Below, piece after piece: positions 12,592 through 37,929 of a stretch of 64,000 nucleotides of DNA. Below the pieces are notes generated by a model, which was not told the DNA's origin, searched no databases, and saw only the letters and a program-made list of their open reading frames with translations. The DNA lies in the NCBI GenBank assembly GCA_030390025.1, contig CM059431.1, positions 116,252,001-116,316,000 of the forward strand. The letters run 5' to 3'. Position numbers and translations under genes: made by a program. Source of the DNA: Squalus acanthias (lineage: Eukaryota). The stretch's first letter is position 1, and each line of letters starts with the position of its first letter.

Positions 12592-14479
12592 GCTGATGTC
12601 ATAGATGGCAGGTCAAGTCGAGTTTAGAGAAGCAATCTGTCAATGGTGTGATAGGTAGTAGCAAAGAGGTGACAGTGGGTTCCAAATTTGCAGAAAAGAC
12701 TGGCAAACTCTAGAGACCTAAAACTGTGATGCAAAAACACTCAGCAACAGCATTTCCCTTAGGAAAGTAAGCAGGTGTCAGGTGGTAGTATTTATTGTAC
12801 TTTCCATGCTCTGCAGTAATGACCACTGAATGGCCACCGAACTTCTGCCTCAGTTTGACAGACGTGGTTCCCGAGCTGCATGATTCCCGTGGTCCTGCAG
12901 TGAAATTGAAAAGCTATGTTTAACAAGATGGTTAAGGGTCTGACAACAAGCTGATAATGATCTAAATTAGGTCGCCCGCCTCTGCTGTTCGGGTCACTGC
13001 CGCGCTGGCAAACGGGCCCAGGTTAAACGCGCGAGGATGCGGGATGATGGCGAGTTCCCGACTCGCTCCTATTTATTTCCACTTTCACTCCTAACCCGCC
13101 TCCAATCCCTCATGCACGGACGAATTAAAATTCCGGTCATTGTCACTGTCAAGCTCATATATGGAGAAAGGCCTTGTGGTCTAGATATCAGATGACTGCT
13201 AGCTCCCACGGGACTGCAACCAAGCAAGGATCAGTGCTTTCAGCAAGGCAAAAAGGATTCGATAATTTTTCAGGCAGCCACCATCATTAGCAGCTAGCAT
13301 AGTGTAAACCTCATTACTTTTGGGGAAAGTGGCATTGCTACATTTCTGAGATCATTAGAGACTGGACCATAGCATATTATAATTAGTTTAAAAGGGTCTA
13401 GAGGTTAGTATGCCACACTTGGAAAACCACTGAAATAAGGTATTAGACATTTTTAATAAACCAGCAGGTGTGACTCAAAACATAGAACTATGTTAATGTT
13501 GTTAGTTAACGTAGGATGATTGCACACTTCAGATGTACAAAGAATCTTTTCATGTCTGTGGATAAATTTACAAGTAATAACTAATTTAAATAGTCTCATT
13601 AAAATTTGAATCCTAACTTCATGCATGTCTACTTAACACTTTTAAAATATTAATTCATTGAATCTTAAGAACTTGACTGCAGGAAAGATATATATATATT
13701 GTAAAAATTTTTGGAAGAACAATTTGTTTGTAACCAGACACAGCTTACCTTTAGGAAACACGTTTGATTTAACATTAACACAGTGGTACAAGAGTCAAAA
13801 GATGAAGACAGTTAGAAATATTTGAGGGTATAGATAACCGTGCTGAAGGAGGACAGGTCTGGCAAATTCTTTCAGCAGGGTTCGAATGGAGAGAAGTGGA
13901 AAACTCTCTCAACACGTGGACAGATCACCCTCGCCTGGTTGGGGTGGGCTCTGCAACAGGTGGGTGATCCGCTCTGTCAGATTACCACCCAGGCAATGAA
14001 GAAGATTTACCCCATGGTTTCCATTGGTCGACAACCTTCCCTCGCATGCTGAGAACATTTGACGTTTTTTTGTTGTCCCACTGGTTCAGCATTAACGTCT
14101 TGTACACCACTTTGCTGAAGGTGATCGGCCACTGACTCCATCATGTCCAGCACTAGACTCTGGGGCTGGAAATTCATCACAGCCCAGGAATGGGAGGTAT
14201 CATTAGAAAAGTTGGAGAATTAGCACCAGGCACTAATGCTTTAGACTGCACGCAAAATTCGTGCTGACTGCTCAAAGAAATGATTGGAGCGCTAATTCAA
14301 GTCTTTAAGCCCAAGCTCATTGGCATTACACTCAAAGGGTGGACCAATAGCAGGAGCAGTCTAATCGCAAGTCATAAATGCAACAGGCTTTTTTCAGTTC
14401 TTAAAGGGGAGGTTCATTGAAGCCGCAGAACCTCATTCTCAGCATTGCTGGCTGTGCAGCTGCCTCAGCAAGCAGCAGC

Positions 14480-16228
14480 AGGTCAAGCAGAAGGAGCCGG
14501 AGAACTGAACCACGCCCCAGATTCTGCGATCGAGCATTGGAGGAGTTAGTGTTCGCTGTGGAGAGACGGAGGGCGGTGCTGTACCCGGCAAGTGGCAGGA
14601 GGCCCTCGCCGCAAGTCTTCTGCACCATGTGGAGGGAGGTAGCGCAGCACGGCTCGGGCAGCACTGTGGTCCTCAGGACCCACACACAGTGCAGGAAGAA
14701 ATTTAATGTCCTCACTCAGGTGGTCAGGGAGAGTGAATGCTTCAACAAATGCTACATACCACCATCTGAACCCCAGTCTGCACACACTGCCCAAAGCACC
14801 ACACCCCCAGCACTCACCCGCCAACAATCTCTACCTACCAACACTCACACCCACATCTCACACCTTGCACACAATGACAGCTATTCAACTATGGCAGGCA
14901 CATCACCCAGACACATTGCTCCACACTCACTCACACACTTTCCTCTCTCTGGCAGGCCAAGGTGGCTCACAACAGGAGGGAGCAGGAGCACACAGGCGGA
15001 GGACAAGCCGACACCCTACCACTGTCTGTGCTGGAAAATAGAGTGTTGCACATTATTGGGCGCCAGGTCATGGGCGCTGTGGCCACTGGCAACGTTGACC
15101 CTCTTGGGGACAACAATGGTATGTTCATCCCTACTCCTTCTTCTCACATCCCACTTCCCCTTCACCCGACAAACGTTTCGCACTTTCCAGCTAATCATGC
15201 TGTATGCATGCATTTCTCCTTTCCTGCCCCCCTCCCCTCAGTATAACACAACCCTTTTGCCTTTATGCTTTCAGATAATGAGCAAGCACCTGAGCAGCCT
15301 GTCCCTGTGGGCACCGTAGAGAGCGAGGCAGGAGAATAGGACGAGAAAAAACACACCGTGTCACTGCATGTCTCACCCGCAGGTATCAGCTCAGATACTG
15401 GCGCTATGCGTTCTCTAGAGACTAGTATAGTAGCGGGATTTGCACAGGGTGCGGCACCGGGGATGAGTGGGCTGCAGCAAGGCCAGGGGGAAATGGTAGC
15501 TTGGGGGCCAGCTCCCTGGAGGGTGAGTTCTGCTGCACAGGACTCAGATGAGGACCTCGATGGGGAGGCGTTCAGAAGAAAGGAGATGGACAGGCACACG
15601 AAGATGATAGGTGCAATGGCAAGGGTGCCCGAGAGCCTCTCGGCAATGATAAGGAGCGTGGAGGAGTCCACCTCCGACATTGCACAAGGCTCTGCGCACA
15701 CCATGGAGCCCATCATTTCCAGTCTGCAAAGGATGGTAGAGTCCCAGAGAGACCGTGGCGACCCAGACCTGATGCCGCTTGTGATGGGCGATCTGACAGC
15801 TTCCATTGCAGCACAGGCAGAAGCGACACAATGTCTTAGTGCTGTAATGCATTCTATACTTGGCATCCAATCTCAGACCGGGGGAGTGGCAGTGGGTCAG
15901 TGGAGCAAGAACCTGCTGTCCTCTCTCAGGATGACAGCATTCCTGCTCCCATCGCTGGCACTCCGCCATTGCCCTTGCTGCGGGGCCTGTCATCCAGCCA
16001 GCCCAGACTGCTGCCGCCCATGCTGAGGTGGTGCAGTCTACAGCTGGGCCTTCCAGGCCCAGAGCTGGTAGAGGGTGTCCTGCAAGGCCATCTGAAGTCT
16101 CCCGCACGGACACTCAGCAGCCTTCCACCAGTCGTGCTGCAGCCACTGGGCCAACACCTCATAGGAGCACTAGAATAGGCAAAGGCACAGTTATGACAGG
16201 CACTAAGGGATTGCACAAGGGTGAATAG
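14480..16228 (+). pseudogene. Harbinger Myb/SANT gene remnant (3-exon layout)
   Basis: PRFCDRALEELVFAVERRRAVLYP..RTHTQCRKKFNVL, AKVAHNRREQEHTGGG, and exon-3 homology to 2956-3902 with a stop and frameshifts. Confidence 0.8.
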
Positions 16229-16393
16229 TTAATATTTTTGTTGTAAATATGCGTTCACTGATTTTTGATAAATTTATTAATTCAGTTTGGATTCTTTTGT
16301 GGTGTGTCTCATTTCCGCTTTGTGCTGTGATATGGCCTGCAACAGGGATGGAATGATGGGGATGTGGTGAGCAATGGGGATCTGGGGTTTAAT

Positions 16394-17590
16394 TCATTTG
16401 AACTGCAGTCTGATGAGGCGGTCACGGACCGCCCTTCCGGAAAGCCGATTGAGTGGCTGCCTCCTCCCTTGCTCCTGTTCCTCCTCCTCCTCATCCTCCT
16501 CGTCGTCCTCCTCGTCTTCCTCTTCCTCCTCATCCTCCTCCACTCCTCTTTCTCCTCCTGAGGTGGTCCCGCAATCCTTGGTGGCAAGGGCTGGGCCCTC
16601 ATGATGGCCAAGTTGTGGAGCATGAGGCAGACACCAAAAATGGGACACCTGCTCAGCCGAGTACTGGAGGGCTCCTCCCGAGTGGTCAAGGCAGCGGAAC
16701 CGTTGCTTCAGCAGGCCGATGGTCTACTCGATGATGTTCCTGGTGGCAGCATGGCTCTCATTATATGTCTTGGGGTTGCGGAGAGGAGTCATGAGCCAGG
16801 TGGAGAGCGGCTAGCCCTTGTCTCCGACCAGCCAGCCGCGAGCTTGATGTGGTGGCTGGAAGAGTGCTGGCACACCGGTCTGGCGCAGGATGAAGGCATC
16901 GTGGCTGCTGCCAGGATAGCGGGCATTCACATTGAGGATTTGCTGTCTGTGGTCGCCCACCAACTGCACATTAAGTGAGTGGTGGCCTTTGCGGTTACGA
17001 AGATCTCAGAATTGTTATGCGGTGTCCGCAAAGCCATGTGGGTACAGTCAATGGCACCCTGCACCATAGGGAATCCCGCTATCCTGGTAAAGCCACATGC
17101 ACGCTCGTCCCGCTTCTTTCTGTGGATGGGGAAGGAAATGTAATCTCTTCTTCTACTGTAGAGAGTCTCTGTGACCGCCCCAATACAGCGATGGACGGCA
17201 AACTGCGAGATGTTCGCTGTGTCTCCTGTTGCAGACTGGAAGGATCCACTGGCGAAGAAATTGAGGGTGACGGTGACCTTGACTGCCACTGAGAGAGCCG
17301 TGGTCGCCCTGATCTGAGGCTGGAGGTCTGGTTGCAGGAGGTGGCAGAGTTCTGTGACCACCTCCTTGGTGAAGCGGTGCCTTTTAATATACTGCTCTTT
17401 GCTTAATTGAAGGTAGGAGAAATGCTCTCAGAATACCCTCGAGGGTAAGGCCTCATGTTGGGAGCTCTGATGACCCTCCTCCTCCCTCTGGCAACATGTT
17501 CCAGTCTTTCTTGCTGCCTCCGCTGCCTCCGCTCCCTCCACCGTAGATGCTGGAGGGCGAGGTCGACTGCCAGTACAGCACCCATTAATG
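16394..17590 (-). pseudogene. Harbinger transposase pseudogene
   Basis: VTELCHLLQPDLQPQ...GAIDCTHMAL nearly identical to 4214-5374. Frameshifted. Acidic C-terminal tract retained. Confidence 0.88.
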
Positions 17591-19304: not shown

Positions 19305-22300
19305 GTCAAGAATGGAATTACCGCCCAATAAGTCTACTCTCAATCATCAGCAAAGTGATGGAAGGTGTTGTTGACAGTGCTATCGAGTGGCACTTACTCA
19401 CCAATAACCTGCTCACCGATGCTCAGTTTGGGTTCCGTCAGGACCACTTGGCTCCAGACCTCATTACAGCCTTTATCCAAACATGGACAAAAGAGTTAAA
19501 TTCCAGAGGTGAGGTGAGAGTGACTGCCCTTAACATCAAGACAGCATTTGACCGAGTGTGGCATGAAGGAGACCTAGTAAAATTGAAGTCAATGCGAATC
19601 GGGGAAGAAGTCTCCACTGGCTGGAATCATACCTAGCACAAAAGAACATAAGAACATAAGAACATAAGAAATAGGAGCAGGAGTAGACCAATCGGCCCCT
19701 CGAGTCTGCTCCGCTATTCAATGAGATCATGGCTGATCTGATCCAACCTCAACTCTAAAGAACACAAGAAGTAAGAGCAGGACCAGGCCACTTGGCCCCT
19801 GGGCCCGCTCCGCCACCCACAGGGCCTTGACCGATCCGAACTCAAACTCATGTCCAATTTCCAGCCCGCTCCCCATCACCCCTGATTCCCTTTACTTCTA
19901 GGAAACGGTCTATTTCTGTTTTAAATTTATTTAATGAAGTAGCTTCCACAGCTTCCTGGGGTAGCAAATTCCACAGACCCACTACCCTCTGAGTGAAAAA
20001 GTTTCTCCTCATCTCAGTTTTAAAAGAGGAGCCCCTTATTCTAAGATTATGTCCCCTAGTTCTAGTTTCACCCATCATTGGGAACATCCTCACCGCGTCC
20101 ACCCGATCAAGCCCCTTCACAATCTTATATGTTTCAATAAGATCGCCTCTCATTCTTCTGAACTCCAATGAGTAGAGTCCCAATCTACTCAACCTCTCCT
20201 CGTATGTCCACCCCCTCATCCCCGGAATTAACCAAGTGAACCTTCTTTGTACTGCCTCGAGAGCAAGTATGTCTTTTCTTAAGTATGGACACCAAAACTG
20301 TATGCAGTACTCCAGGTGCGGTCTCACCAATACCCTATACAACTGCAGCAATACCTCCCTGTTTTTATATTCTATCCCCCTAGCAATAAAAGCCAACATT
20401 CCATTGGCTTTCTTGATCACCTGCTGCACCTGCATACTAACTTTTTGATTTTCTTGCACCAAGACCCCCAGATCCCTTTGTACTGCAGTACTTTCCAGTT
20501 TCTCGCCATTAAGATAATAACTTGCTCTCTGATTTTTCCTGCCAAAGTGCATAACCTCACATTTTCAATATTGTATTGCATTTGCCAAATCTCTGCCCAC
20601 TCACCCAGCCTGTCTATATCCCCTTGTAGGTTTTTTATGTCCTCCTCACTCTCTACTTTCCCTCCCATCTTTGTATCATCTGCAAACTTTGATATGTTAC
20701 ACTCGGTCCCCTCCTCCAAATCGTTAATATAGATTGTAAAGAGTTGGGGACCCAGCACCGACCCCTGCGGAACACCACTGGCTACTGGTTGCCAGTCCGA
20801 GAATGAACCATTTATCCCAACTCTCTGCTTCCTTTTAGATAACCAATCCTCCACCCATGCCAGAATATTACCCCCAATCCAGTGATTTTTTATCTTGAGT
20901 AATAATCTTTTATGTGGCACCTTGTCGAATGCCTTCTGGAAGTCTAAATACACTACATCCACTGGTTCCCCTTTATCCACCCTGTACATTATGTCCTCAA
21001 AGAACTCGAGCAAATTTGTCAGACATGACTTCCCCTTCATAAAGCCATGCTGACTTTGTCCTATTAAATTATGTTTATCTAAATGTTCCGTTACTGTCTC
21101 CTTAATAATAGACTCCAAAATTTTACCCACCACAGATGTTAGGCTAACTGGTCTATAATTTCCAGCCTTCTGCCTACAACCCTTTTTAAATAAGGGTGTT
21201 ACATTAGCAGTTTTCCAATCTGCCGGGACCTTTGCTGAGTTCAGGGAGTTTTGGAAAATTATTACCAAAGCATCCACAATTCCTACTGCCACTTCCCTCA
21301 ACACCCTAGGATGTAAGCCATCAGGTCCAGGGGATTTATCCGCCTTGAGTCCCATTATTTTACTGAGTACCAATTCCTTAGTGAATTTAATCGTATTTAG
21401 CTCCTCCCCCACTAGAGCCCCCTGTTTGTCCAGTGTTGGGATATTCTTAGTGTCCTCTACCGTAAAGACTGAAACAAAATATTTGTTCAGCATTTTTGCC
21501 ATCTCCATGTTTCCCACCATTAATTTCCCGGTCTCATCCTCTAAGGGACCTACGTTTGCCTTAACCACCCTTTTTCTTTTTATATAACTATAGAAACTCT
21601 TGCTATCTGTTTTTATATTTTTTGCTAATTTATTTTCATAGTCTATTTTCCCTTTCTTAATCAATCCTTTAGTTACTTTTTGTTGTCTTTTGAAGACTTC
21701 CCAATCTTCTATCCTCCCACTAACTTTGGCTACCTTATATGTCCTTGTTTTTAGTTGGATACTTTCTTTAATTTCTTTACTTAGCCATGGATGGCTGTCA
21801 TTTCTTTTACACCCTTTTTTCCTCAGTGGAATATATTTATTTTGAAAGTTGTAAAATAACTCCTTTAATGAACACCACTGCTCATGTACCGTCTTACCCT
21901 TTAATCTATTTTCCCAGTCCACTTTAATCAATTCTGCTCTCATGCCATCATAGTCTCATTTATTCAAGCTCAGTATGCTTGTTTGAGAACCAACCTTCTC
22001 ACCCTCTAATTGGAAGGTGGTTGTAGTTGTTGGAGGTCAATCATCTCAGCCCCAGAGCATCGCTGCAGGAGTTCCTCAGGGCAGTGTCCTGGGCCCAACC
22101 ATCTTCAGCTGCTTTATCGATGACCTACCCTCCGTCATAAGGTCAGAAGTGGGGATGTTCGCTGATGATTGCACAGTGTTCAGTTCCACTCGCAACTCCT
22201 CAGATAATGAAGCAGGCCATGCCCGAATGCAGCAAGACCTGGATAACATTCAGGCTTAGGCTGACAAGTGGCAAGTAACATTCGCGCCACACAAGTACCA

Positions 22301-23050
22301 GGCAATCTCCAACAAGCGAGAGTCTAACCACCGCCCCTTGTCATTCAATGGCATTACCATCACCGAATCCCCCACAATCAACATCCTGGGTGTCACCATT
22401 GACCAGAAAATTTACTGGACCAGCCACATAAATACTGTGGCAACAAGAGCAGGTCAGAGGCTGGGTATTCTGTCGCGTGTCTCACCTCCTGACTCCCCAA
22501 AGCCTTTCCACCATCTACAAGACACAAGTAAGGAGTGTGATGGAATACTCTCCACTTGCCTGGATGAGTACAGCTCCAACAACACTCAAGAAGCTCGACA
22601 CCATCCAGGACAAAGCAGCAAGCTTGATTGGCACCCCATCCACCACCTTAAACATTCACTCCCTCCATCACTGGCGCAACGTGTCTGCAATGTGTACCAT
22701 CTACAAGATGCACTGCAGCAACTCGCCAAGGCTTCTTCGGCAGCACCTCCCAAACCCTCTACCACCTAGAAGGACAAGGGCAGCAGGCGCATGGGAACAC
22801 CATCACATGCAAGTTCCCCTCCAAGTCACACACCATCCTAACTTGGAAATATATTGCCATTCTTTTATCGTTGCTGGGTCAAAATCCTGGAACTCCCTCC
22901 CTAACAGCACTGTGGGAGTACCTTCACCACATGGACTGCAGCGGTTCAAGAAGGCGGCTCACCACCACCTTCTCAAGGGCAACTAGGGATGGGCAATAAA
23001 GACTGGCCTTGCCAGTGATGCTCATTTCCCAGGAATGAATTAAAAAAAAG
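19305..23050 (+). mobile_element. CR1/L2-group LINE (family B), split by a younger CR1: pieces 19305-19641 and 22012-23050
   Basis: QFGFRQ..AFDRVWH upstream of the insert continues as GVPQGSVLGPTIF, FADD, ILGVTID and MEYSPLAW downstream. 3' end with AATAAA and A tail. Confidence 0.85.
19642..22011 (-). mobile_element. 5'-truncated CR1 LINE, ORF2 RT with one frameshift (ORFs 20417-21943 and 19848-20552)
   Basis: KSPGPDG, NYRPVSLTS, QHGF, LDFQKAFD, GVPQGSVLGP, KFADDTK, RPHLEYC and FFTQRVV motifs; (TTCTTATG)n tail. Confidence 0.92.
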
Positions 23051-23830
23051 TAGCTTGCCCCCCCAACTAAGAAGATGGGGTGTGGGGGGGGGGGGGATCA
23101 AAAGTGGATTTTTCTATGAAAATACAAAAAACTTGAATGCAAGACAAGAACCAATGTGTGTCACAGGCTGAACCAAGTAGAAGTGGCAAAAACTCATAAT
23201 GTGGGCAAAACCACTTTTTCCATTAGTCTGGAAATTAACGTGTATGATGTTAAATCCATTCGTGGGTCACTGCAATCCAGTTTAAAATGTATCGAAAATG
23301 CCTATGACAACCTATCTCTGAGGTGATTCATTATAAAAATGTTCACTTTACATGCAGTAACTGTTATGCTTGTAGTGCTAGAATGAGTGATTTCAAAGTT
23401 AACTGTCATAAAATGTTAGATAATAACTGGTATTACACACATGATTTGAGTCTCCGTGCATTTCTGCACTCTGACCAGACATTGCGAGTTTGTTGTCCTA
23501 CACCCTCTCCCCCCCACTCTACCCAAGGTTTGATATACCAATCTCCTCCCCAGTTGGGAGTGTTGGGGTGCCCTCTCCCCACAATTAGGTAGTTTCCCTG
23601 TCTTTGCTCCCTCGTCCTCACTGCTATCTCTGTTCCTTCCCACTCCGCTCCCCTGCTCCCCTTCTCCTATTCCTGTTCCTCTCCTTTTTCCCCCCTGCCT
23701 CTCCATTTTTTATCCTCCTCCTCGCCCCTCCCTCTCTCATTCCTGCCTCTGCCCTTTTCTTCCTTTATTCCCCTACTCCCCACTTGCCCCTTGCATTGGG
23801 CCAATTATCCTTCCCACCCTCTTACTCCAC

Positions 23831-25513
23831 TGTAAAGTTTCGCAATTATCGCGATTCAAAATAACGAAAGAGAAACAGATTCGTTTGACCAGTTTATTTA
23901 AATGAAATGCTGTCATGATTATAAAGGACACAGAAGCCTGTAAAATGGCCGCCACGCATCGTGGCAGAAGCTTCCAGAATTTCAGTGGGCAGACAAGATG
24001 GCGTTCGAATATACATTTCAAATATAAGACGGGATCATACTCGATGAGCACTGATAAAGACAGGATGCAACCTGTTTGCATTTGTGACAATAGCAAAAGA
24101 TATAAGTGCTGGAATCGTTTTCCATGCACAAGTAAGGACCATTGTACTGGGCAATCGAAGGCCCATCCAGACACATCAATACACAAATACCCCCACGGCT
24201 CTACAATGAGAGAGCCATTCTCGGGTGATTAAACAAGCATTCGGGGGCCCCCAAAACCAGTCAGGTAGATGATTCATACGATCCTGGCTGGGCCAACAAT
24301 GGGGAAAACATTAACGGGTAGTTGGCCAGTTTCAGGTGCTACCGAAACCTGTTAAGGACAAGAATCGCCCCATGCTGGGAGTTTTGAGCGCCAATATTTC
24401 ACAAAGGACAAACATTAAGATTTGGGTGGGAGATAAGGGAACACAGCACTATAACTATAGTGAACAAATGTCCATCGCGCTCTTATTCTCTTATCTCGCT
24501 GCTGACTGCGGAGGGTTTATTCTCTTATTCGCTTGTGACTTCATGGACTGGCTTGACTGGTGAGCTTCTGTGTTTTCTCTGGACTCTGTTGACTATGTTG
24601 GGTGGAGCTCAAACGGAACGAGCCGCCTCAACGAGGGCCAGTGACCGGGTGCACCATCCCGAGGGTCGGTAAACGGTGTCTGGACCCGAAGGCCCGAAGA
24701 GACGAGACGAGACGAGAAGAAGAGGAGAAGAATCCACGTGCCGCCACGGTCAGTAAACCCCGACCATGCCCGAAAATACACGAAATAACTTTTCATTGAA
24801 GTCCCCCGACAACCGGTGTCGGGGACAGGGAGACTCTTTTTCGAATTCTACCGGCAACCGGTGTCGGACACAGGAAGACTCTCCTTCGAACCGTGTCCGA
24901 GTTCTGTCGAGTTCTTCTTGACAACGGGGAGCCTGGCCTGCTTGCCGCAGCAGCGAAGATAAACAAGTGGGGTACAGAGACCCCTCAAAACACGTGACAG
25001 TCAGGCGCTGCAGCGAAACGAGCCGAGTGCCTCACTTTAAAAAATTCTCCGAAGTATCACGAGTGGTGAGCATGTTTCCCGATCCTACAAATCTAGATGT
25101 AGTGTAGGTATTGATAGGGGAGGGTGGTTTTATTAAGGATAAAGTATAATGTGTTCCCCTTTTTACGATATGCCGTGCGTTCTTCATTACCATAGACCAA
25201 GCTTTATGAATGTATGTATACTTGTACTCTCGTTAATTTGCGCCTATGACATGTACTTCATGATCTTGAACGCTATGCAGTAAAGATTTCCATTTCGTAC
25301 TATTCAACCGGGTCTATTTGAGTATTTCTCTGCATTACTGCTCTCGCACCTAAGTCCAGTCTCAGAACCGTAAGGGCGAGTGGGTCGAACCACTCACAGG
25401 TGCTTATTGCAACAAGGCTGGCCGGAGACCAGAGCAAGCAATAGTATTAGGCAACGAAGGCCTAACCTCGCACCAGCACCGTCTGCGATACAAGCACGAC
25501 ACAAACCCTTACA
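23831..25513 (+). repeat. 5' LTR (1683 bp)
   Basis: Colinear direct repeat of 34887-36569 (offset 11056), TG...CA ends. Confidence 0.97.
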
Positions 25514-25517
25514 GAGA

Positions 25518-27338
25518 ATGGCGACCATGAAGGGACACTGGCAGCGAGAGAGTAATGTTTTAGACCCTGGTGTGAATAGGCGAAATGTGATGGATGAGAG
25601 GGTAGCCGACTATGTGTTTGGGAAGGTTAACTTAACCAAAAGGTGGATAAGTGACCTACTGATGGATAAGTGTCCACTAGACGCAGCCATCAAATGGACA
25701 GGCAGTAAAGAGCATAAGAAGTCGGTGGAGAAAGCGGTCTGGCTGATGTGCTACAAGAAGCAAGTCCAACTTTCGGACCAGGTCATTGTGGCACAGGCAG
25801 CTCAGATCAGGGAATTGGAAGTTGAGATGGAGGAAAAGGTCACGGGAGGACAGAAACTCATTGCATCCTTGAATGCGTTACATCAGGAACGCCAGATAGT
25901 AGCCAACCACCATGAGGCAAAAATTGATTACCTAGAGTGTCAGGTCACGGAAGCAAAATTGAACGAGGGTAGGATTAGAGAACGGTGTGCCCGCCTAGCG
26001 AACCAGATAAAAGCCCAAGAAGAATGCTTGAAGGGAGTTAGGGTGGCATATAAGATGGCCCTCGAGGATAGGCATGAGGGAGCCGACCACAGTGTTTGCC
26101 AGAAGGAGATAGGGAACCTAAGAGAGGCCCTGAATAAGGCAAACGGCTTGGTGTGCCTCATCAGCCCGTCAGCAAACCAGCCACAGGTGGGTAGGGAATT
26201 CCAAAAATCCCTACCAGACAAAGCAGAGGAGGTATTTGCCACTGTGCCCTCCGCGCCACCCAGCTATTCGGCAACCTGGGTAAGGGAGGAAGTGGTGGAA
26301 ATAGAGAAGGAGGTTCCCGAGGTAGGACAATCCCCGGAGGTAGAGTCGAGCCCGGGACCGATGTGTCCGCTCCGAGGTCACAGAGAGGCCCGAATGCAGC
26401 CAATGGGGATGACGGGGATGTCCTGAACCAGCTTGTATTGCCCCACAGCTCACACCAGCTGAGAGCAATGATTAGCCATGTACGGAAGCTGTCCGAGTCA
26501 GACGACCCTTCGTAAACTTTAGGAGGTAGAACAGACCGCAGCAATTAATGGCTGCGACGATGCGGATAAGACCAAAATGTTGCTGTTCTCGTTAGATAGC
26601 TCGATCCATCAGTGTCTCTCAGACGAGAGCAAGAAGGGAAATAAAACCTATGGGGAGTTACGGGACGAGGTCCTAGAAGTGTTGGGGGCGGATGACGAAG
26701 GTCCGTTCGTCAGATTGTGTCAGACCGTACAGATGGAGGGAGAACCCCCGAAGGTTTTCGCCGACAGGCTGTGGCCAGTATACCAGCATAGCTGCCCAGG
26801 CACGCCAGGGCGCGATTATCTGGACGGTGCCGGTTTAACTCATTGGCTCAGGTGTTTAGTAGCCAACAGTTTGCCAGCCGTCAGGGAGCAGGCCAAAGCG
26901 TGGTTTGATCCCACTAACCCCGCCACAACAGAGGAGTCTGTCCTAAATCGACTCACCATAGGGTATCGGAACACTAGGAGCATGGGAGCGCGTCCCCTTA
27001 AGGGAAAGGTGCATGAGGCACGGCCCGCAGCCCCGGCTCAGAAAGAGTGGCATCAGGAGGGAAACCGCGCCCCACAAGCCAGTGGTGCTTGTTACGGGTG
27101 CGGGAAGACAGGTCACTGGCGTAAGAACTGTAGGAACCCCTGGAAGGACCCCAGGGATAAAAATCCCGCAGCCTGAACCCAAGCGCCTGTCTCTGAGAGA
27201 GGAGCTGGTGTGCCTATCCATCCCGATGCGATAGAATCAATGTTGGGAGCTATGCGGTCCCTTATGATTTCGCAAGGAAGGGTGGCAGTCGCTACCGGCC
27301 TCACAGATGCCGCAACCCCGTCCACCGGTACCCAATGA
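25518..27338 (+). pseudogene. gag: gag (coiled-coil N-terminus, late domains, capsid-like region, CCHC zinc knuckle), disrupted
   Basis: ORFs 25380-26426 and 26577-27176; PSAPPSY; CYGCGKTGHWRKNC. Frameshift(s) at ~26380-26520 and a premature TGA at 27174. The frame continues to TGA 27336. Confidence 0.85.
25519..25536 (+). promoter_or_regulatory. Primer binding site, tRNA-Arg-type
   Basis: TGGCGACCATGAAGGGAC, 5 nt after the LTR. Complementary (17/18, one G:U) to the 3' end ...GTCCCTTCGTGGTCGCCA recalled for vertebrate tRNA-Arg(UCG). Confidence 0.75.
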
Positions 27339-27342
27339 CTAG
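27336..27342 (+). promoter_or_regulatory. Candidate gag-pol stop-codon readthrough signal UGA-CUAG
   Basis: CAA TGA CTA GAG; the protease LLDTGAS (27438-27458) is in the same frame with no intervening ATG before codon +24. Confidence 0.65.
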
Positions 27343-30300
27343 AGCCCGTGCAGCCCGTCTATCTGTGTCCGCTCAGCTATGATGCGTGGAAAAGACCCCT
27401 GGTTGAGATGGAGGTAGAGAAGCAGAAGGGTAGTTATTTGTTGGACACGGGAGCTTCATGCACCGTGATTCATACGGATAGCCCCTTTGACTCACCACTG
27501 TCTACCAAGGTCCATACACATTAGCGGGGTTCACGGGAAAAGAGCAGGCTGGCGCGTTCTCCATTCCGCTTTCCATTCATTTAGGAGCACTCCACACCAC
27601 ATGGAAGTGTATACTGATGAAATGGCAGGAGGGGGGTGGCAGAGGTATCCTCGGATCGGATCTCCTATCGGAACACGGGATCCTCGTGGACCTTAGGAAT
27701 CACTGTCTCTGGGGAGCCAAGGGTGGAAAAGGCAAGGTAGTGGTAATCCCAGGGAAGGAAGGTAAAGGGGCTCTGTGTACCATGAAGCCATCCGGAGGTT
27801 ACGACCTCGGGCTTATGGTCGCGGATGTCCCAACGGACATGCAAACGTACGTGTCAGATAATATGCACGCATTTGCAACCCACAAGCACGATTGTGGTAG
27901 GGTTACCGGGTTTGAGGTCAGCGTAGACGGGGACCCCATGACCCGGCCCCAAAAGCAGTATAACTTCCTCAAAGAAGCAGAACCCGATATGGAGACAGCA
28001 ATGTCCTCATTGGTGCAGCAGGGCGTGTTGAGGCCGATAGCCACACACGTGAACTCCCCATTATGGCCGGTGAGGAAGCCGGATAATTCGTGGAGGGCCA
28101 CGATGGACTACAGAGTCCTTAACAGTAACATCCCCGCCTGCGCGCCCACAGTAGCAGCAGTTGCTGACCTAATAGGGAGTATCCCAGCGTCCGCGACCAC
28201 GTTCACGGTGCTGGATATCTCGAACGGTTTTTGGTCCATCCCGCTGCGGCGAGAGGACCAGTACAAGTTTGCCTTTACTTTCAAAGGTCAACAGTACACA
28301 TGGAACTGTTTGCCACAGGGTTTCCACAACAGCCCCAGTATTTTCCACCAGTGTATGGTAGGAAGTTTAAAGGAGTTTAGTCAGCCCAATCAGATAGTGC
28401 AGTACGTGGATGATTTGCTCCTGTTCACCGACTCAAGGGAGGAGCATGGACCACTGCTAGCCGAGTTATTGGAGCTGCTAGCGAGAAAGGGTTTTAAAGT
28501 GAACCCTAAGAAAGCACGTATCGGTCAGCAGGAAGTAAAATTCCTGGGTCTGACCATTCGCGCTGGGGAAAGAGCCAAAGATAAGGCTAGGAGGGAGTCG
28601 GTGCAGGAGTTACCGATTCCCAACACCATAACGGGTGTGAGGTCCTTTCTGGGACTGACCGGTTACTGTAGAGACTTCATCGAGGACTATGCGGCCACAG
28701 CAGCTCCGCTGCTCCGACTCCTCCATAAGGGAGTGGAGTGGTCTTGGGACGAGGGTTGCCAGGCAGCATTCGAGAAGTTAAAAAGGGATTTGCAGACCGC
28801 GCCAGCTTTAGGGGCCATAGATGGGGGGAAGGAGTTTTTCCTGGAGGTAGCTGCCAGCGGAGACAGCTTGAGCGCCGTGCTGCTCCAAGAGCGTCACGGC
28901 AAGCTGCGGCCGGTTGTCTATTCGACCAGGGTGTTAACGGATGTGGAGAGGAGTTTTTCCAACTGCGAAAGGCATCTCTTAGCCACGCATTGGGCTGTGA
29001 AAAGATCAGCGATCTTCACAGGGCTCTCTCCCATCACTCTCCTCACCCATCACACACCAACTAAGATGCTTCTAGATGGGAGGATTAAGGATGGGACTGT
29101 AAGCAGCGCTTGTATTGCATGCTGGACCCTTCTCCTTTCCCAGATGGATCTTAGAGTTAAAGGTCTTTGCGAGCCCAAGCTCGCGGCCAACTTGGTATAC
29201 CCCGGAACAGCCCACCGGTGTTCGGTGGAAGGGGTGTGGGAGGTCAACATAGGTTTGCGGGCCGGGATACATCCCACAGGTCGCGAGATTTATGTTGATG
29301 GTTCCAGCACAGTGTCCGCTGGCGAACGACTCACAGGGTGTGGAGTTTATGACACTGCGGCAGACCTTGCCCTGGCAATTAATCTCTCCAGCACCATGAG
29401 CGCGCAGCAGGCTGAGCTGTCTGCGGTGGCGTACGTCGTTACCCACCCAGAAATCTTCCCAACCCCATACACGATTTGTTCGGACAGTATGTTTACGTGC
29501 AATTCCTGTACGGAATACCTGGCCATTTGGTCCCGCCGTGGCTACACCTCCGCGGACGGGCGACCTTTAACGGTGAAGCCCTTGCTGGAAAGGATCCTAG
29601 CAGCAGTAGGGGAGGAAGGGGAGATTTTCATCCATAAGGTGAAAGCTCACTCCTCCACAGAACCCCGCGGGGAGGGCAACCAGCACTAGCCAGGGAGGGT
29701 GCCCGTAACGGCATTTTCTGGGACCCCTCTGGACCCGGACCCGTGGCAGCGATCCAAGGCAGGGAAGGGAATCCCAGGAACACCAGGGTAGCACTGCCTC
29801 TAGACCTTAAGACCGTCCAGAACCAGGATCCCGCCCTAAAAGCAGTTCTCAGAACGATTACTGAGGGCAAGCAGGTAGAGGGCCCGTACAGTACGGCAAC
29901 CCTCTCCGTTAAAGAAGGCATGCTGTTCCGCGAGGAACAGTGGGTTGTGCCGCAGCAGCACAGGAGGGAATTCCTCCAGTTGGCTCATGAGGGGCCGGGG
30001 GCAGGACACCCCGGGCCTGAGGTTACCTGGCAACGGGTAGAGCAGGCGGGATGGTGGCCGGGACTCAGGGAGCAGGTCCGCGAGTTCTGTGCTAGCTGTC
30101 TCGTGTGCGCAGCAAACAACCCAGACCCCCAGAAAAGGAAAGTGCACATGGGACACATCAGGAGGGTGGAGGGACCATGGCAGTCGATACAGATCGATTA
30201 CATAGGGCCCCTGCCCACCACCCAGGGAGGCTACAAATACTGCCTCGTCTTGGTGGATGTGTTTTCCAAATGGGTAGAAGCCTTCCCCTGTAGAACAGCT

Positions 30301-31818
30301 ACGGCGCTGGGTACAGCCAAGATCTTGGTTCGGGAAGTGTTCTCGCGGTGGGGACTCCCCCGTTTCGTGGAGTCAGACCAAGGGAGTCATTTCACCGGCC
30401 AGGTGATGCAGAACACCCTCATGCTTTTGGGCATTGAAGGGAAGTGGCACGTAGCGCACAATCCCCAGTCATCCGGGATTGTTGAACGCATGAACCGGAC
30501 CCTAAAGGAGAAGCTGAGGAAAGAGACTATGAACTCGCCCCAAAAATGGGCGGAGGTTCTGCCTCTAGTCCTCATGGGGATCCGGGCCAGTCAGTCGAAA
30601 AGTACGGGGTATTCCCCGTACGAGGTGATGACTGGGAGGATCATGCGAACCCCCACCAATGTACTAGCCCCGGTGCTCACTGAGGTTCAGCTCCAAGAGG
30701 TGAAACGGGACAAGTTTGTCCAGACCCTCTTGGAGCGCCTGAAGCAGGTTTACGAGCAGGCAGCTGGGAACATGGGAAGACAGCATCAGGGCAATCGCCT
30801 GTTGCTGGAACCCCACAAGAAACGGGAGTGGGAAGTCGGTGATCAGGTCATGGTTAGGAACTATGCCAGAGTAGGGAGTTTGGAACCACTGTATATGGGG
30901 CCCTACAGTATTGTAGATAAGGCGAGTCCCATGGTGTACGCCGTAAAGGTACCTCGGCGCACGAAATGGTTCCACATCAACCAGTGCAAGCTGTATAAAC
31001 CGGGTGCACAGGGGCCAATCACGGGGGCCAGACCTGCGAGTGGGGACTCGCAGCCCCGGGTAGGACCACAGGGCACACAGACCGTTAAAGCAGCCTGCTT
31101 GAGGGGAGAGGACATTCTAGAAAAGTGTAGGATCTTTTCTTGAGGTTGGGATTCAGATGAGGAAGAGCTCGAGGAGCTCGACCACGTTAGTGACCCGATC
31201 GGAGAGGTGCTGGGGTCGGAGGACGAAAGTTTCGTCCTCGACCCAAACTCAGGGGAGATAGGGGCTGCGAGTGGAGATCCACACATGGTGGAATCAGAAA
31301 GTGCAGATCCCGAGCCCAGGGGGGCGGGGCCAGGGGAGACGGAGCCAGCGGCTCTGGTAGGACCACAGGTCGTGACGGTGGAAGTCTCGGTACCCGGTCC
31401 GTCGGCCCTGGAAATCTTGCCCTTGGGGGAGGTAGGGATTGCGAGTGGAGGACCACATACTGGGCCAAGTAGGGTGGAACCAGAAGCTGCAAATCCCGAG
31501 TTCAGGGGGGCGGAGCCAGGGGAGACGGAGCCAGCGGCTGTGGTGGGACCACTGGCCGTGACGGTGGAAGTCTTGGTTCCTGGTCCATCGGCCCTGGAAA
31601 TCTTGCCCAAAGTAGCCCTCCGTAGGTCAAGTCGGACACCCCAGCCCAGGAAGTCGTGGTCAAGTCCCCCGTGCACCCCCAGGCGTAAGTTCAAGGTCAA
31701 GGCAGCCCAGGGAGATCCCAGTCCCAGCGCAGCGGCGACAGGCTGCGGCAGATCAAAGGAAGGGGTCAGTGCCCTCCCACCATTGGGAAAAGCTCGTGGC
31801 AGCCTTCGCAGAATTTAG
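27339..31818 (+). pseudogene. pol: pro-pol: aspartic protease, RT, degenerate RNase H (tether), RNase H, integrase, long C-terminal extension
   Basis: LLDTGAS and GILGSDLL; NSPLWPVRKP, LDISNGFW, LPQGFHNSP, YVDD; FLEVAAS..ERHLLA; IYVDGS, SAQQAEL, SDS, KVKAH; H..GHPG..C..C, IDYIGP, SDQGSHF, ERMNRTLKE. Frameshifts at ~27510 and ~29685, TGA at 31141. Confidence 0.93.
31255..31608 (+). repeat. Imperfect ~186-bp in-frame tandem duplication in the integrase C-terminal extension
   Basis: PGETEPAA.VGP..VTVEV.VPGPSALEILP occurs twice; GAAATCTTGCCC at 31411 and 31597. Confidence 0.85.
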
Positions 31819-32096
31819 GTAGGCCGCCCTGGGAACGGGCGGCGCTGTACAGTTTAAGTTTAGGATAAGTTTATAAGTTTAAGTTTATAGTTTTTATGTC
31901 AGGTTAAGTTTGTAGTTTAATTTTAACAGAAAATGGTAAAATGATGGGAGTTAGAGATAGGAATAGTTAAAGTCTATCCAGCATACATGTCTTTTTACGT
32001 GAGATGAGGTCAAGGGACCCACTCACCCTTCACAAAAGCCAGAGACTCTTGGGAGGCTGGCTACATCATTTTATCTGATCACAGGAACCAGGAAAG

Positions 32097-34446
32097 ATGG
32101 AAAGGATTCTGATAGTGCTCGCAACGATCGGATATGGATTGGCCTATCGGGGCCTCACCAAGGATGTCGTTGTGTTTGGTTGCTCCGGGGACACGGGTCC
32201 CATCGCGACAGATGGGACCGGGGAGCGAAAGGCTGAGGAAACCGCCACTTATTTCCACAAGGGAAGGTGGCCCGGATGGCTGGGAACGAATTCAACGGAA
32301 TACTCCAGCGCATCCGGATTTGCCTATAAAGAGATTTCTATACTTTGCCCAGAGTGAGGATCATTGCACCCAGAATCAGCGTCACCGTCGGCAAAAGGAT
32401 ATGTTTGACATGCAATGGGAAGGTCCCATTGAGCCGATGGTGGTAGTTACGGAAGTTAAGCAAGACTATGAGAAATTCCTCGGTTGAGTGGGAGCGATTG
32501 GGTAACAATACCCATCGGACAATTACGGGGACTAACGGACAATTGAAAGTCTGTTGGGACAAATGGTGGGAACCGGATGAGGGAATATATGTTTGTATGT
32601 GGGGGCCGAAGTACGTTTGCCCCAAGGGTATATCCATATTTTTCGTACACCAGTGGCAGGATAACGGGAAAGGGATGAGGTGGGATGTCAGCACAAAGGG
32701 GTGCGGAGCTCCATTCTCCCCGATCCTGGTAAACGCCACTGAACTCATCACGCGCCCACGCAAGGCTCCGCCCACGATTCCGGTGGTTTTGGCTCAGGAG
32801 GAAGGGTGTCGTAAAGCCACTAAGGGGCCCGGGAATGGTTTGGTACTGGTCCCAACAGACCAGATACTATTTCAAGGGGTACATTACGCGGTGGCTTCGG
32901 TGATTCTAAATCTCACCGAGGTGCAGTTACCAGAGTGGTGCCCCAAAGAGACGGAACAATTGTACCAGGTCCTGTTGACAAACATGTTCAGACAATTCTA
33001 CGAGTTTGATTTTGTGGAGATTGACAAAACAAGCTTGTACACCACACCACACGAAGTTTTGGGTCAGGTGGGGAGACAAAGAAGGGGTATTGTGAACGAT
33101 ATGTTCACTGCCTTTAATACAGGAACATCTGTCGTCAACGCTCTAGACAACGTGGAGCTGCAGACCCAGATCAATGGTTTAAAAACACAATTAAAAAGCA
33201 TCCTCACAAGCGAAAACAAGGTAGTAGGGTCTGAGTTACATGAGGACCAGGCCATGACGTTACACTTAAAAGAAATTATAGCAGAGCTGGAGAAGCATGC
33301 GAGAACGGTAAATGCCCTGATCAGGGAAGATCGGAACGCATCCGATCAAGCTGCGCAGAACGAGGTGTGCGTACTATACGGGGCGTGGTTACTGGGCGAG
33401 GGCCGCAGTAATTTGGAGGATTTAAAACAAGGTTTGGTCCCGTCCTGGATAAGTAACAAACACCTGCAGGCGCTCCACCCTTTTCAGAATGCATTAATCC
33501 GTGCCAGCTCAGGCTAGCCTCAGAGGCATACCCAGTCCCCGTGGACTGCAGACGGTCAAACCATACCATCATGGGTATAGTACTACGTATGCCGGTGTTG
33601 GGCGACACAGCAAAGCCCGCACCGGTGTATCGGGTGGAGAACATTGGTGTCATTCAGGGGGGAGCCCACATTCGCTACGCAGTGGTCCCACCTTACGTCA
33701 TCCACTGGGAGCAAACGATGACAGGTACCGACCTATCGGGTTGTCGTGGCCAGGGAGCACACATCATCCTGTGTCCCCAGCACTTGAATGCCTTTTTAAC
33801 ACCACAATGTGGGTTCAGAACGGCTGGCGCCAAGCCCATGAATTGCACCATGGAGGCAATGACACAAGATCATGTGCCTCCGCCGGTGGCATACATAGGG
33901 GGTGGAACATATTGCGTTACCACTGCAGCGCAACACTACCAGCATGGAAACCACAGCCGGTGTCCGGTGAGTGACAGCAGTTTCTGTTTTAAATCCAGGG
34001 CTGAAGTTCAAGTGGCACAACAGCGAATTGTCCCGATCCCTGAACCATCCACTGTTCATCTTACAATAAAAGAGAATTTCACAGACTTGCAGCGGTTCGT
34101 CGCGCATTTCGGATACATCATTCCCCCTCTCCCTGAACACCTCGCCAAGCTTTTGAAAGCCGTTGCGGTATCGCAAAAACATTTTTACACCCTGGAACAG
34201 AAAACAGTAGAAATAGGGACAGAAATTTTGGACATAGTGATCCCACCGTGGTGGGATCTGTTCACTAATATTGAAGTTCCGTCATGGATCAGGATAGCCT
34301 CCCACATTTTAGTTGTGTGCCAAGTCATAATAGTAGTGTACCTATTGGTCGTGCACTGCAAGAGAGGCAGACGCCTCACAAAGCAGGAGAACACAGGGGA
34401 GTGGAGAGAACGTTACGTGCGCGTGAACGAGGAAAGTTCCGCGTGA
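32097..34446 (+). pseudogene. env: env: signal peptide, Ig-like domain, class I fusion (F-like) glycoprotein with TM anchor; disrupted
   Basis: Hydrophobic N-terminus after a CAG|G acceptor at 32084; furin RQRR (33074-33085) followed by GIVNDMFTAFNTGTSVVNALD; heptad region; Cys-rich region; TM IASHILVVCQVIIVVYLLVV; basic tail. Frameshifts at ~32350 and ~33490, TAG at 32444. Confidence 0.88.
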
Positions 34447-34874
34447 AAGGCCAGGATGACGCCTGCTCCATTTTACCATGTGTGTCTTGTAATGGAGTGT
34501 TTTAGTTATGTAGATGTGTAACTAAGTTTGGAATTTTTGTACGTTAAAAAGAGTTGTTTTGAAGATTGGAACTTTTGTATTTTTAAAAGAGTTGTTTTGA
34601 TTATTTTTTCCTTGTATAATAAAACATGCACATACAGGTGGTGCGAGAGGCATCGGCCTGTTGCACTTGGAAGGCGTATACGCAGTGTAAGTTTAAAGGC
34701 AATACTGCCTACGGTTGGTCCAAGTTTTAAACAATGTAATTTCCCTGGGAAATGAGGACGGCATGGAGACCATAGATAGTTTTTAAGTTAAGGGAGTGTT
34801 TGGATGTGGAGAATCGGGATAATTTTTGCTCACCACCACTTTTAATTGATACGATAAGCGGAGTTATTCGCATC

Positions 34875-34886
34875 AACAGGAGGGAC
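34875..34886 (+). promoter_or_regulatory. Polypurine tract
   Basis: AACAGGAGGGAC immediately before the 3' LTR TGTAA. Confidence 0.7.
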
Positions 34887-36569
34887 TGTAAAGTTTCGCA
34901 ATTATCGCGATTCAAAATAACGAAAGAGAAACAGATTCGTTTGACCAGTTTATTTAAACGAAATGCTATCATGATTATAAAGGACACAGAAGCCTGTAAA
35001 ATGGCCGCCGTGCATCGTGGCAGAAGCTTCCAGAATTTCAGTGGGCAGACAAGATGGCGTTCGAATATGCATTTCAAATATAAGACGGGATCATACTCGA
35101 TGAGCACTGATAAAGACAGGATGCAACCTGTTTGCATTTGTGACAATAGCAAAAGATATAAGTGCTGGAATCGTTTTCCATGCACAAGTAAGGACCATTG
35201 TACTGGGCAATCGAAGGCCCATCCAGACACATCAATACACAAATACCCCCACGGCTCTACAATGAGAGAGCCATTCTCGGGTGATTAAACAAGCATTCGG
35301 GGGCCCCCAAAACCAGTCAGGGAGACGATTCATACGATCCCGGCTGGGCCAACAATGGGGAAAACATTAACGGGTAGTTGGCCAGTCTCAGGTGCTACCG
35401 AAACCCGTTAAGGACAAGAATCGCCCCATGCTGGGAGTTTTGAGCGCCAATATTTCACAAAGGACAAACATTAAGATTTGGGCGGGAGATAAGGGAACAC
35501 GGCACTATAACTATAGTGAACAAATGTCCATCGCGCTCTTATTCTCTTATCTCGCTGCTGACTGCGGAGGGTTTATTCTCTTATTCGCTTGCGACTTCAT
35601 GGACTGGCTTGACTGGTGAGCTTCTGTGTTTTCTCTGGACTCTGTTGACTATGTTGGGTGGAGCTCAAACGGAACGAGCCGCCTCAACGAGGGCCAGTGA
35701 CCGGGTGCACCATCCCGAGGGTCGGTAAACGGTGTCTGGACCCGAAGGCCCGAAGAGACGAGACGAGACGAGAAGAAGAGGAGAAGAATCCACGTGCCGC
35801 TGCAGTCAGTAAACCCCGACCGCGCCCGAAAATACAAGAAAGAACTTTTCATTGAAGTCCCCCGACAACCGGTGTCGGGGACAGGAAGACTCTTTTTCTA
35901 ATTCTACCGGCAACCGGTGTCGGACACAGGAAGACTCTTCTTCGAACCGTGTCCGAGTTCTGTCGAGTTCTTCATGACAACGGGGAGCCCAGCCTGCTTG
36001 CCGCAGCAGCGAAGATAAACAAGTGGGGTACAGAGACCCCTCAAAACACGTGACAGTCAGGCGCTGCAGCGAAACGAGCCGAGTGCCTCACTTAAAAAAA
36101 TTCTCCGAAGTATCACGAGTGGTGAGCATGTTTCCCGATCCTACAAATCTAGATGTAGTGTAGGTATTAATAGGGGAGGGTGGTTTTATTAAGGATAAAG
36201 TATAATGTGTTCCCCTTTTTACGATGTGCCGTGCATTCTTCATTACCATAGACCAAGCTTTATGAATGTATGTATACTTGTACTCTCGTTAATTTGCGCC
36301 TATGACATGTACTTCATGATTTTGGATGCTATGCAATAAAGATTTCCATTTCGTACTATTCAACCGGGTCTATTTGAGTTTTTCTCTGCATTACTGCTCT
36401 CGCACCTAAGTCCAGTCTCAGAACCGTAAGGGTGAGTGGGTCGAACCACTCACAGGTGCTTATTGCAACAAGGCTGGCCGGAGACCAGAGCAAGCAATAG
36501 CATTAGGCAACGAAGGCCTAACCTCGCACCAGCACCGTCTGCGATACAAGCACGACACAACCCCTTACA
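34887..36569 (+). repeat. 3' LTR (1683 bp)
   Basis: Direct repeat of the 5' LTR. AATAAA at 36335-36340 (AGTAAA in the 5' copy). Confidence 0.97.
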
Positions 36570-37929
36570 CCACTTGGCCTGAACACTGAACTTGACCTTG
36601 ATTCCCTATGTGCAACGCCATGAAAGATCGACTAGTTTACATTGAGCTCCACTATTTTTAAGCCAGCATTGAGAATGGACAGGTTACTACCTCTATGAAA
36701 ATAGCTGAGTGAGGACATTTGATGTGAGTGCATTTAACATTCATATGATAACATTACTCAAGAGTGATTTCCAAGCTATTATGCATGTTGATGCTGTTGA
36801 ATCAAGTGCCAACATTAGATTAATAGAAACTATTTGATGCTATTTTATACTGATTTTAAGGAGATGATTAAAAACAAGTGTGTTTTTTGTTTAATCTTTG
36901 TTTTTTACTACCCTGAATAAATGAGACAACATATGCAACTGTCCAAAGATTAGAATTTTACAATAAAAACAGTAAATAAACTCAGTAAAACCAGAAAAAC
37001 AAACATAGGTTTCAACAACCTGAAGAGAATATGAGTGTGACTTTCCCTCGACCAAATCTTACCAGCCCTCAGACAGCAACAACAACAACTTGTATTTATA
37101 TAGCGCCTTTAACATAGTAAAACATCCCAAGGTGCTTCACAGGGGCGCTATAACAACACAACACACCAAAAGAAGCAGTTTAGGTCAGCTTTGAGAACTT
37201 GGCCAAAGCACCTCACAAATTTCATGCTCAGCGTGCTCTAGTTAGAACCTCTTATACTTTTCCCTGCTATCTTGTGCAGCTGACGATAAAAGTCATCTTT
37301 CCTGAAGGTTTGGTGTCTCGTGCATTTATTGATTGCTATAGTCCCCTGTTCTACCATTGGAATATTCACAATGCTGTATCAAAGTTAAAAGAATAGAGAT
37401 CTACAATGGTCTTCTTCTTAAGGATGTATCTGTGCTTATTTTTTACTTTTTTGAAGAAATATTTATTTTTCTAAAGTTAGCTTCGACATAATTAACCATA
37501 AAGTGTATTGTCTGCCGATTAGAGCAGCAACTTCACATTTTCAAAGATAAGGAGTGAAACATACTGTCGGCAATATTACCGGATGATGTTTTAACTGTAT
37601 GGTGATTAATTCAGTTAAAATAAGTGCGCACAGACCTGCATTAAAACAGCAGAAGACTGTCATCTAAACATTCTCTTTTGGTTAACGCTGCATAGCCACT
37701 GAAATGATGCCATGTGTAGCTGTACAATTCATCGCATCTCATGTTGCGCACTGTTTTTTTCGAGGGGGAGGGGAGCAATGAAGAAAATAAATAAACCAGC
37801 CAAAAGAGGAAAAAAAATCAAAGATCACAGACTCAACAGGAATGACTCTGTGACCGGGTGCTCCCAGCGATGAGCTGCACTCAGGGAGTGATGGTCAGAG
37901 AATTGGACTACAGTGTCGTACCTTTCCAT

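Follow-up and report, generated by a model that had tools for sequence, protein, structure and literature searches.

How does a retrovirus reach its polymerase when gag closes with a stop codon in the very frame in which protease then begins? The question is raised by a decayed 12.7 kb provirus in the genome of Squalus acanthias, which we analysed within a window of 64,000 nucleotides (GenBank assembly GCA_030390025.1, contig CM059431.1, positions 116,252,001 to 116,316,000 of the forward strand); coordinates below are those of the window, and features lie on its + strand unless stated otherwise. The provirus carries, as its gag-pol junction, a UGA at 27336 followed by CUAG. We propose that programmed readthrough of this UGA is very probably the route to Pol, and the provirus is best explained as a dead copy of a high-copy retrovirus family resembling snakehead retrovirus (SnRV).

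The junction can be read directly in the window. As the sequence-only reading had claimed, the gag frame closes in CAA-TGA-CTA-G (terminator and 3' context, 27336..27342; TGA, 27336-27338), and the protease motif LLDTGAS begins at 27438, 34 codons past the TGA, in the same frame and without an intervening stop. More specifically, the TGA shares its frame with the capsid and zinc-knuckle open reading frame (ORF) at 26523-27173, and translating 26523-27524 yields, in order, capsid, a single CCHC knuckle, the 27174 stop, a further 53 codons, the 27336 stop and protease. In the window copy gag is already interrupted (26424-26520, 27174), and the frame reaches 27336 only in other copies. An in-frame UGA followed by CUA between two coding regions is the arrangement of type II readthrough, which is defined by a UGA-CUA/CGG context and includes the alphavirus sites to which the junction had been likened (PMC13517186). 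On the + strand of the window, CTA follows 11 of the 1077 TGA triplets and CTAG follows 2; within the provirus body (25514-34884), CTA follows a single TGA out of 116, the one at 27336.

Other copies of the family were viewed through contigs from 4 of the 22 listed runs (X3, X6, X9 and X11), representing four organisms and four studies; run X3 may be the window's own source. At an identity of at least 80%, 1295, 317, 104 and 414 contigs, respectively, were placed on 26900-27700, and the differences described here are the best 40 of 121 rows by support, with 39 distinct variant positions. At 27174, the contigs disagree with the window over 99.9, 100, 100 and 100% of depth in X3, X6, X9 and X11 (30, 17, 10 and 18 contigs). 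Because practically all contig depth in four runs differs there, the in-frame stop at 27174..27176 is a decay private to the window copy, and a gag end at this position, which the sequence-only reading had allowed for, did not hold. Its other proviso, a sense codon in the remaining copies (a CGA>TGA decay), did not occur in the four organisms either: no difference is listed at 27336-27342, bases that all four runs cover. A private decay at 27336 would rank like that at 27174, and a stop found only in the window is therefore disfavoured, with minor variants possible. The stop at 27336 and its context are real and conserved in the near family.

The pattern of change on either side of the stop bears on how the family lived. 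Third codon positions make up 10 of the 15 listed differences in gag, 4 of 10 in the Gag tail, 3 of 4 at the start of protease and 9 of 10 after it, a bias that indicates that this arrangement was in place while the family was replicating. From 27333 onward, contigs of a more diverged family can be aligned, with 16 differences in 90, and among loose contig ends an unrelated Gag tail is joined just before the stop at 27336. Separately, base 27370 is where contigs of both X6 and X9 diverge from the element and pass into one common unrelated sequence; the two runs may share a derivative that arose by deletion or recombination. Searches for loci related at the DNA level returned none of 45 candidates in metagenome_contigs, none of 41 in viral_contigs and none of 27 in genome_contigs; a second scan of metagenome_contigs returned 15 of 80, at merely 23-36% identity.

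Protein relatives point to the same end of gag. Two full-length Gag relatives, P0048 and P0049 (53% and 41% identity), extend 68 and 64 residues beyond the zinc knuckle, and a third, P0084, extends 64 beyond it; the window Gag has 68 residues from the knuckle to 27336 and 14 from the knuckle to 27174. By sequence comparison, the nearest full-length Gag proteins have their ends where 27336 lies in the window, and none of the 36 matches to a search query laid across the junction had its best stretch running into protease. Named Gag relatives come from catshark, whale shark, horn shark and Xenopus. These data bear on the idea that the TGA at 27336 arose by decay after insertion in a family with fused gag-pol, or that gag ends at 27174. 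This idea would be in keeping with the several decay stops and frame breaks of the window copy, with a fused coelacanth gene model, with a distant Gag that ends 14 residues past its knuckle, and with the Arg codon that precedes CUA at the corresponding place in the lokiretrovirus Loki-Pfl. It conflicts with the contigs, where a private decay gives a row near 100%, as at 27174, and none is listed at 27336 in four organisms, as well as with the nearest Gag relatives, which stop at this position, and with an elephant-shark relative that has TGA at the corresponding place. The idea is largely refuted by the contigs, and its probability is very low.

What would ribosomes do at such a stop? In the active family, most ribosomes translating the genomic RNA would terminate at UGA 27336 and release Gag, while the CUAG context would render the stop leaky, so that a minority would decode UGA by a near-cognate tRNA and continue in frame to yield Gag-Pro-Pol. 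The near-cognate tRNAs usual at UGA are those for Trp, Cys or Arg. In-frame readthrough is the simplest route to Pol, and the proposal of the sequence-only reading that Pol is made by UGA suppression is strongly favoured by the shared frame, the conserved stop, the ends of Gag and a protease that starts before the first ATG. The protease profile begins at 27387 (residue 17 aligned to model position 2), seven codons ahead of 27408, where the first in-frame ATG lies, and initiation at that ATG would consequently lose the first protease strand; the peptide ahead of the ATG resembles, by eye, the same part of P0002 and P0095.

The stop could also be genuine and never read through, Pol being translated by internal initiation or from an RNA of its own, either spliced, as in foamy viruses, or transcribed from an internal promoter. 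Candida Tca2 has a gag-UGA-pol arrangement in which the bypass is unclear (PMC2194720). The bases after the stop here include an AG, but no pyrimidine tract precedes it; several annotated Pol relatives start with a Met beside the DTG motif, but the first in-frame ATG here falls within the protease profile match. Reporters built on Tca2 are said to have shown little readthrough. The reverse transcriptase (RT) of the provirus is about equally close to those of foamy virus and murine leukaemia virus (MLV), yet its Gag carries a zinc knuckle, a feature absent from spumaviruses (PMC2717909), and its gag and pol lie in the same frame, unlike in spumaviruses, where pol starts independently in a different frame (PMC8278194). 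Furthermore, a separate RNA offers no reason for keeping a leaky CUA context, and stop suppression has been described for SnRV and Ovex1. We consider a separate RNA or internal start improbable.

Bypass of the UGA by some other recoding event, whether selenocysteine insertion, a frameshift or a hop, appears very unlikely. UGA can encode selenocysteine and a long hairpin follows the stop; however, Rfam gave no family match in 23800-36600 up to E 5, in a scan that would have covered the selenocysteine insertion sequence (SECIS) families. No slippery heptamer precedes the stop, the sole candidate lying at 27483, and a simple pseudoknot search gave nothing strong (3 GC pairs at most, where 30 control sites gave 0-8) and no convincing H-type pseudoknot. 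A single frameshift cannot join gag and pol because both share a frame.

Programmed readthrough could be assisted by RNA structure. A 202-nt fold downstream of the stop forms one rod, a predicted extended stem-loop of 193 nt (27345..27537) that opens at +10 (the U of UGA being +1), with -81.5 kcal/mol, z -4.48 (0 of 200 shuffles) and rank 4 among 183 provirus windows. The sequence-only reading had suggested folding the downstream 150 nt, a length at which no stimulatory stem emerged: the five folds made at 82-150 nt ranged from z +0.8 to -1.5 and showed no significant stem, and a 90-nt fold scan found the apical hairpin only (z -3.9, rank 2 of 73). In the longer fold, the upper part (27400-27507) is firm in 7 of 7 sequence contexts, and the basal helix has probabilities of 1.0, 0.73, 0.82 and 0.82 in four contexts. 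The 4 listed variants within the rod are all unpaired (142 paired and 51 unpaired bases; Fisher p 0.0045), and variants occupy 0 of 47 paired third positions versus 22 of 204 outside (p 0.018), both counts being made among the best 40 of 121 rows. Conservation at synonymous sites has been reported over 100-200 nt past UGA-CUA/CGG sites (PMC3159437). In the mechanism we propose, the stem-loop opening at +10 would raise the readthrough rate as in the Sindbis and Venezuelan equine encephalitis (VEE) alphaviruses; on whether it does stimulate readthrough we are evenly divided. Other 200-nt windows of the element fold as strongly, with z -4.1 to -5.2 (27039-27238, 28439-28638, 30439-30788 and 31139-31338), and the cluster of strong predicted folds in integrase may be a cis-element.

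Several points weigh against the readthrough account or its structural component, and are best considered together. The window copy itself is unable to make Pol. The comparison of copies covers the best 40 of 121 difference rows from contigs at least 80% alike, in which rare variants are lost, and coverage thins over 27467-27520, in the 3' arm of the stem-loop, where variants could go unseen. More distant Gags, from sharks and frogs, stop at other points, 14 (P0083), 39 (P0052) and 47 (P0074) residues past the knuckle, the end of P0083 lying at the same distance as 27174, and two Gags have no intact knuckle. In Latimeria (coelacanth), gene model P0002 runs from a Gag-like part into Pol without a stop, either through an error of the model or as a genuine fusion; a profile search for fused proteins of greater length, confined to 2591-5000 aa, gave one distant match and is uninformative on fusions. 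As for the stem-loop, the provirus is structured overall (mean z -1.2 over windows), and the 202-nt window was picked after the five shorter folds had failed. The basal helix falls to 0.49, 0.22 and 0.02 in three contexts with longer 3' flanks, a similarly placed long-range closing helix occurs in 83 of 363 windows, and no compensatory pair was seen among the listed variants.

Where the family stands among retroviruses determines which known systems it should be compared with. The best solved relatives of its RT are those of MLV (225 bits), foamy virus (211) and Ty3 (138), and an RT tree of 29 rows sets the window apart from 6 gypsy rows with support 100/100. In this tree, which contains neither SnRV nor lokiretrovirus rows and whose gamma/epsilon-like labels were assigned from Pfam content and hosts, a clade of 11 gamma/epsilon-like rows (100/99) excludes the window, which sits among relatives from coelacanth and frogs without clear resolution. 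The element belongs to the Retroviridae and not to Ty3/gypsy. Hand counts against sequences in the supplement of PMC7947760 give 68 of 132 RT residues identical to SnRV (52%, ungapped) and 43 of 132 identical to the lokiretrovirus Loki-Xla (33%). The traits of the SnRV clade (PMC2717909, PMC4299795) are present, namely one Gag zinc knuckle, a coiled-coil Gag N-terminus and a GPY motif (both judged by eye) and an in-frame gag-pol stop, and in-frame stop suppression is the mode expected of that clade. Membership of an SnRV-like clade is the best assignment that these sequence characters suggest. Named Pol relatives (41-50%) come from coelacanth and frogs and are annotated as 'NYNRIN-like'; the relatives of Gag and Pol are in keeping with a cartilaginous fish as the probable host.

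Two other placements were tried and set aside. A lokiretrovirus identity was dropped on the hand-counted RT identities given above, and is further contradicted by the RT motif (LPQGFHNSP versus LPFGYINAG). The ERV4/ERV3 group of Repbase has a 5-bp target duplication and neither a Gag zinc finger nor GPY/F (PMC4299795), and was ruled out by the 4-bp duplication, zinc knuckle and GPY motif found here.

Within the SnRV-like clade, the prototype shares the coiled-coil Gag N-terminus, the one zinc knuckle and a single frame for gag and pol with one stop; its stop, however, is UAG-GGC, and that of Ovex1 is amber (PMC2717909 for Ovex1), whereas the family here has UGA-CUAG and a candidate 193-nt stem-loop. 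The SnRV-like lineage I of the elephant-shark elements (CmiERV) has CAA-TGA-CAT at the same place, in frame to ILVDSGS of a homologous protease start (PMC4422223), although with UGA-CAU as its context rather than UGA-CUA, and in an epsilon-like CmiERV the junction reads CAA-TGA-CTC and its frame leads on to LLVDTGA (same source); CmiERV records were assigned by file position and RT motif, and the junctions were read by eye. In-frame UGA codons between gag and pro-pol, with suppression assumed as here, have also been published for SSSV (UGA-AGA), ZFERV (UGA-CGA) and RMEV (UGA-AGU; PMC13517186) and for XtERV-S (TGA; PMC8278194). These elements belong to epsilon-related and class III clades; the hexamers of SSSV, ZFERV and RMEV are not UGA-CUA, and a 3' structure is not described for them in the portions of the sources at hand. 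Readthrough in epsilonretroviruses is unverified and its cis-elements unclear, according to the 2026 review PMC13517186. The type III site of Moloney murine leukaemia virus likewise combines suppression of an in-frame stop with a 3' structure, but it has UAG-G, a purine-rich spacer and a 50-nt H-type pseudoknot at +12, whereas the site here has UGA-C, with no Rfam match and no strong pseudoknot in a simple search.

The closest match in context lies outside the retroviruses. Sindbis virus has UGA-CUA, O'nyong-nyong virus UGA-CUA-GAC and VEE virus CAA-UGA-CGG, and the first two share their hexamer with the site here. Type II structures of alphaviruses and coltiviruses are extended 3' stem-loops that start at +9 to +16, with +10 predicted here, and span 78-177 nt (PMC13517186). 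A suppressed rate of third-position change in the stem and control of the ratio of polymerase to upstream protein are further likenesses; alphaviruses are, however, an unrelated group of viruses, and the stem here is only predicted and is somewhat longer (193 versus 78-177 nt). The sequence-only reading had called UGA unusual for a retrovirus. UGA as such is not, as the published SSSV, ZFERV, RMEV and XtERV-S junctions attest; the open-licence PMC and bioRxiv literature, however, yielded no report of UGA-CUA or of an extended stem-loop at a retroviral gag-pol junction, an absence that is weak evidence. What appears to be new is a putative signal of the alphavirus type, in a retroviral clade whose prototype has UAG at this place.

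Is the signal older than this clade? Lokiretroviruses, the sister group of all other retroviruses, resemble the element in their dual RNase H, coiled-coil Gag, NYNRIN/CGIN1-like best matches and possibly an F-like env (PMC7947760), and they were present in none of 3 cartilaginous-fish genomes in the supplement of that study. In the supplementary sequences, read by eye, gag ends in TGA-CTA in 7 of 24 lokiretroviruses: TGACTAG in Ofa, Pyo, Sau and Cne, and TGACTAA in Bsp, Dcl and Lro. Gag and pol share a frame in Cne, Dcl and Lro, as judged by eye, and the pol of Bsp is annotated as beginning in a different one. In Loki-Pfl, CTA is preceded by an Arg codon, which resembles the opal/Arg switch of alphaviruses, Tfu has X-L-S in the protein, and the Loki-Npa protein has a '?' upstream of protease, its DNA junction not being located. 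Ten of the 24 are annotated as fused gag-pol, nine sequences so annotated being left out of the inspection, and six gave no visible junction. The accessible main texts of PMC7947760 and PMC9040795 make no mention of readthrough, stop codon or frameshift.

UGA-C is therefore spread over the SnRV-like family here, two CmiERVs (UGA-CAU and UGA-CUC), ZFERV (UGA-CGA) and 7 of the 24 lokiretrovirus sequences. Readthrough at UGA-C, strongest as UGA-CUA(G) with a long 3' stem-loop, could conceivably have been the ancestral retroviral route to Pol, a proposal that we put forward tentatively and consider rather unlikely. If it were true, UAG with a pseudoknot, -1 frameshifting and a spliced pol RNA would be later replacements. 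The ten fused annotations weigh against it, and the main alternative, convergence on the leakiest stop context of vertebrates, is at least as plausible.

Because lokiretroviruses share the hexamer, the choice between ancestry and convergence becomes testable by placing junctions on an RT tree. The evolution of Pol expression in retroviruses is known mainly from mammalian and avian genera, and for other aquatic retroviruses the accessible part of PMC13517186 gives hexamers only. The site described here offers a concrete, testable signal, UGA-CUAG with a long stem-loop, in a high-copy family whose natural variants can be used for covariation. It also calls for caution in annotation, as gene models of these elements are labelled 'NYNRIN-like' and start inside protease.

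The provirus that carries the junction has clear borders. It runs from TG at 23831 to CA at 36569 between 4-bp target-site duplications (23827-23830 and 36570-36573), and its 5' long terminal repeat (LTR; 23831..25513, TG...CA) and 3' LTR (34887..36569) match over 1685 ungapped nucleotides with 38 differences (97.7%). The LTRs are long, about 1.7 kb, with open frames of 80-170 codons on both strands (23831-25513). Five nucleotides past the 5' LTR lies an 18-mer resembling a primer-binding site (25519..25536), which we take to be a candidate tRNA-Arg primer site. The 5' part of gag (25374..26426, from the ORF list) is coiled-coil-like and resembles the N-terminus of P0048, both by eye; it has no Pfam match and is broken at 26424-26520 in the window copy. 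The rest of gag (26523..27335) comprises capsid, the single CCHC knuckle (27087-27134; zf-CCHC, Pfam E 7e-4, just under the cut-off) and the 68-residue tail, as identified from Pfam and relatives.

Past the stop, the N-terminal part of protease continues in the gag frame (27339..27521; Pfam RVP, E 6e-5; DTG at 27444-27452) until the frame breaks near 27510. The remainder of protease, RT (YVDD), a tether RNase H-like domain and RNase H follow at 27491..29689 (Pfam RVT_1, RT_RNaseH, RT_RNaseH_2 and RNase_H). Integrase (29638..31143; H2C2 and rve from Pfam and the ORF list, C-terminal GPY motif by eye) lies in a frame other than that of RT in the window copy, with a break near 29640-29690. With gag broken at 26424-26520 and 27174, pol near 27510 and at 29640-29690, and env in fragments, the window copy is dead.

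Integrase closes with TGA-G, and beyond this stop its frame stays open for 224 codons (31141-31818), a stretch that lacks Met, is acidic and proline-rich, has no Pfam match, contains a 136-nt direct repeat (31287-31422 and 31473-31608, 89%) and is overlapped by a 303-codon antisense frame (30903-31814). A decay stop, an accessory gene or a second leaky stop could each account for this arrangement. The fragmented env (32079..34446) was assigned by position, with a basic cleavage-like motif and a C-terminal hydrophobic stretch seen by eye. Atlas leads for env are weak and mutually conflicting: the middle piece leads to PF00523-bearing and baculovirus F clusters and the C-terminal piece to Monjiviricetes and rhabdovirus clusters (each 0.94, recognition below 2300). 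The Pfam scan of env gave no match to PF00523 (Mononegavirales F), no PDB relative of the C-terminal piece was found, and the env fold model has a pLDDT of 34.5.

Around the provirus, a broken 3' end of a LINE-type reverse transcriptase, recognized by eye, lies just upstream (21987-23051), and a second copy of this 3' end occurs at 49890-50313 with 89% identity. Dispersed repeat families of 60-300 nt or more (D1-D3 and D6-D13) recur in the same order at 1369-5878, 11588-17285 and 45049-47971.

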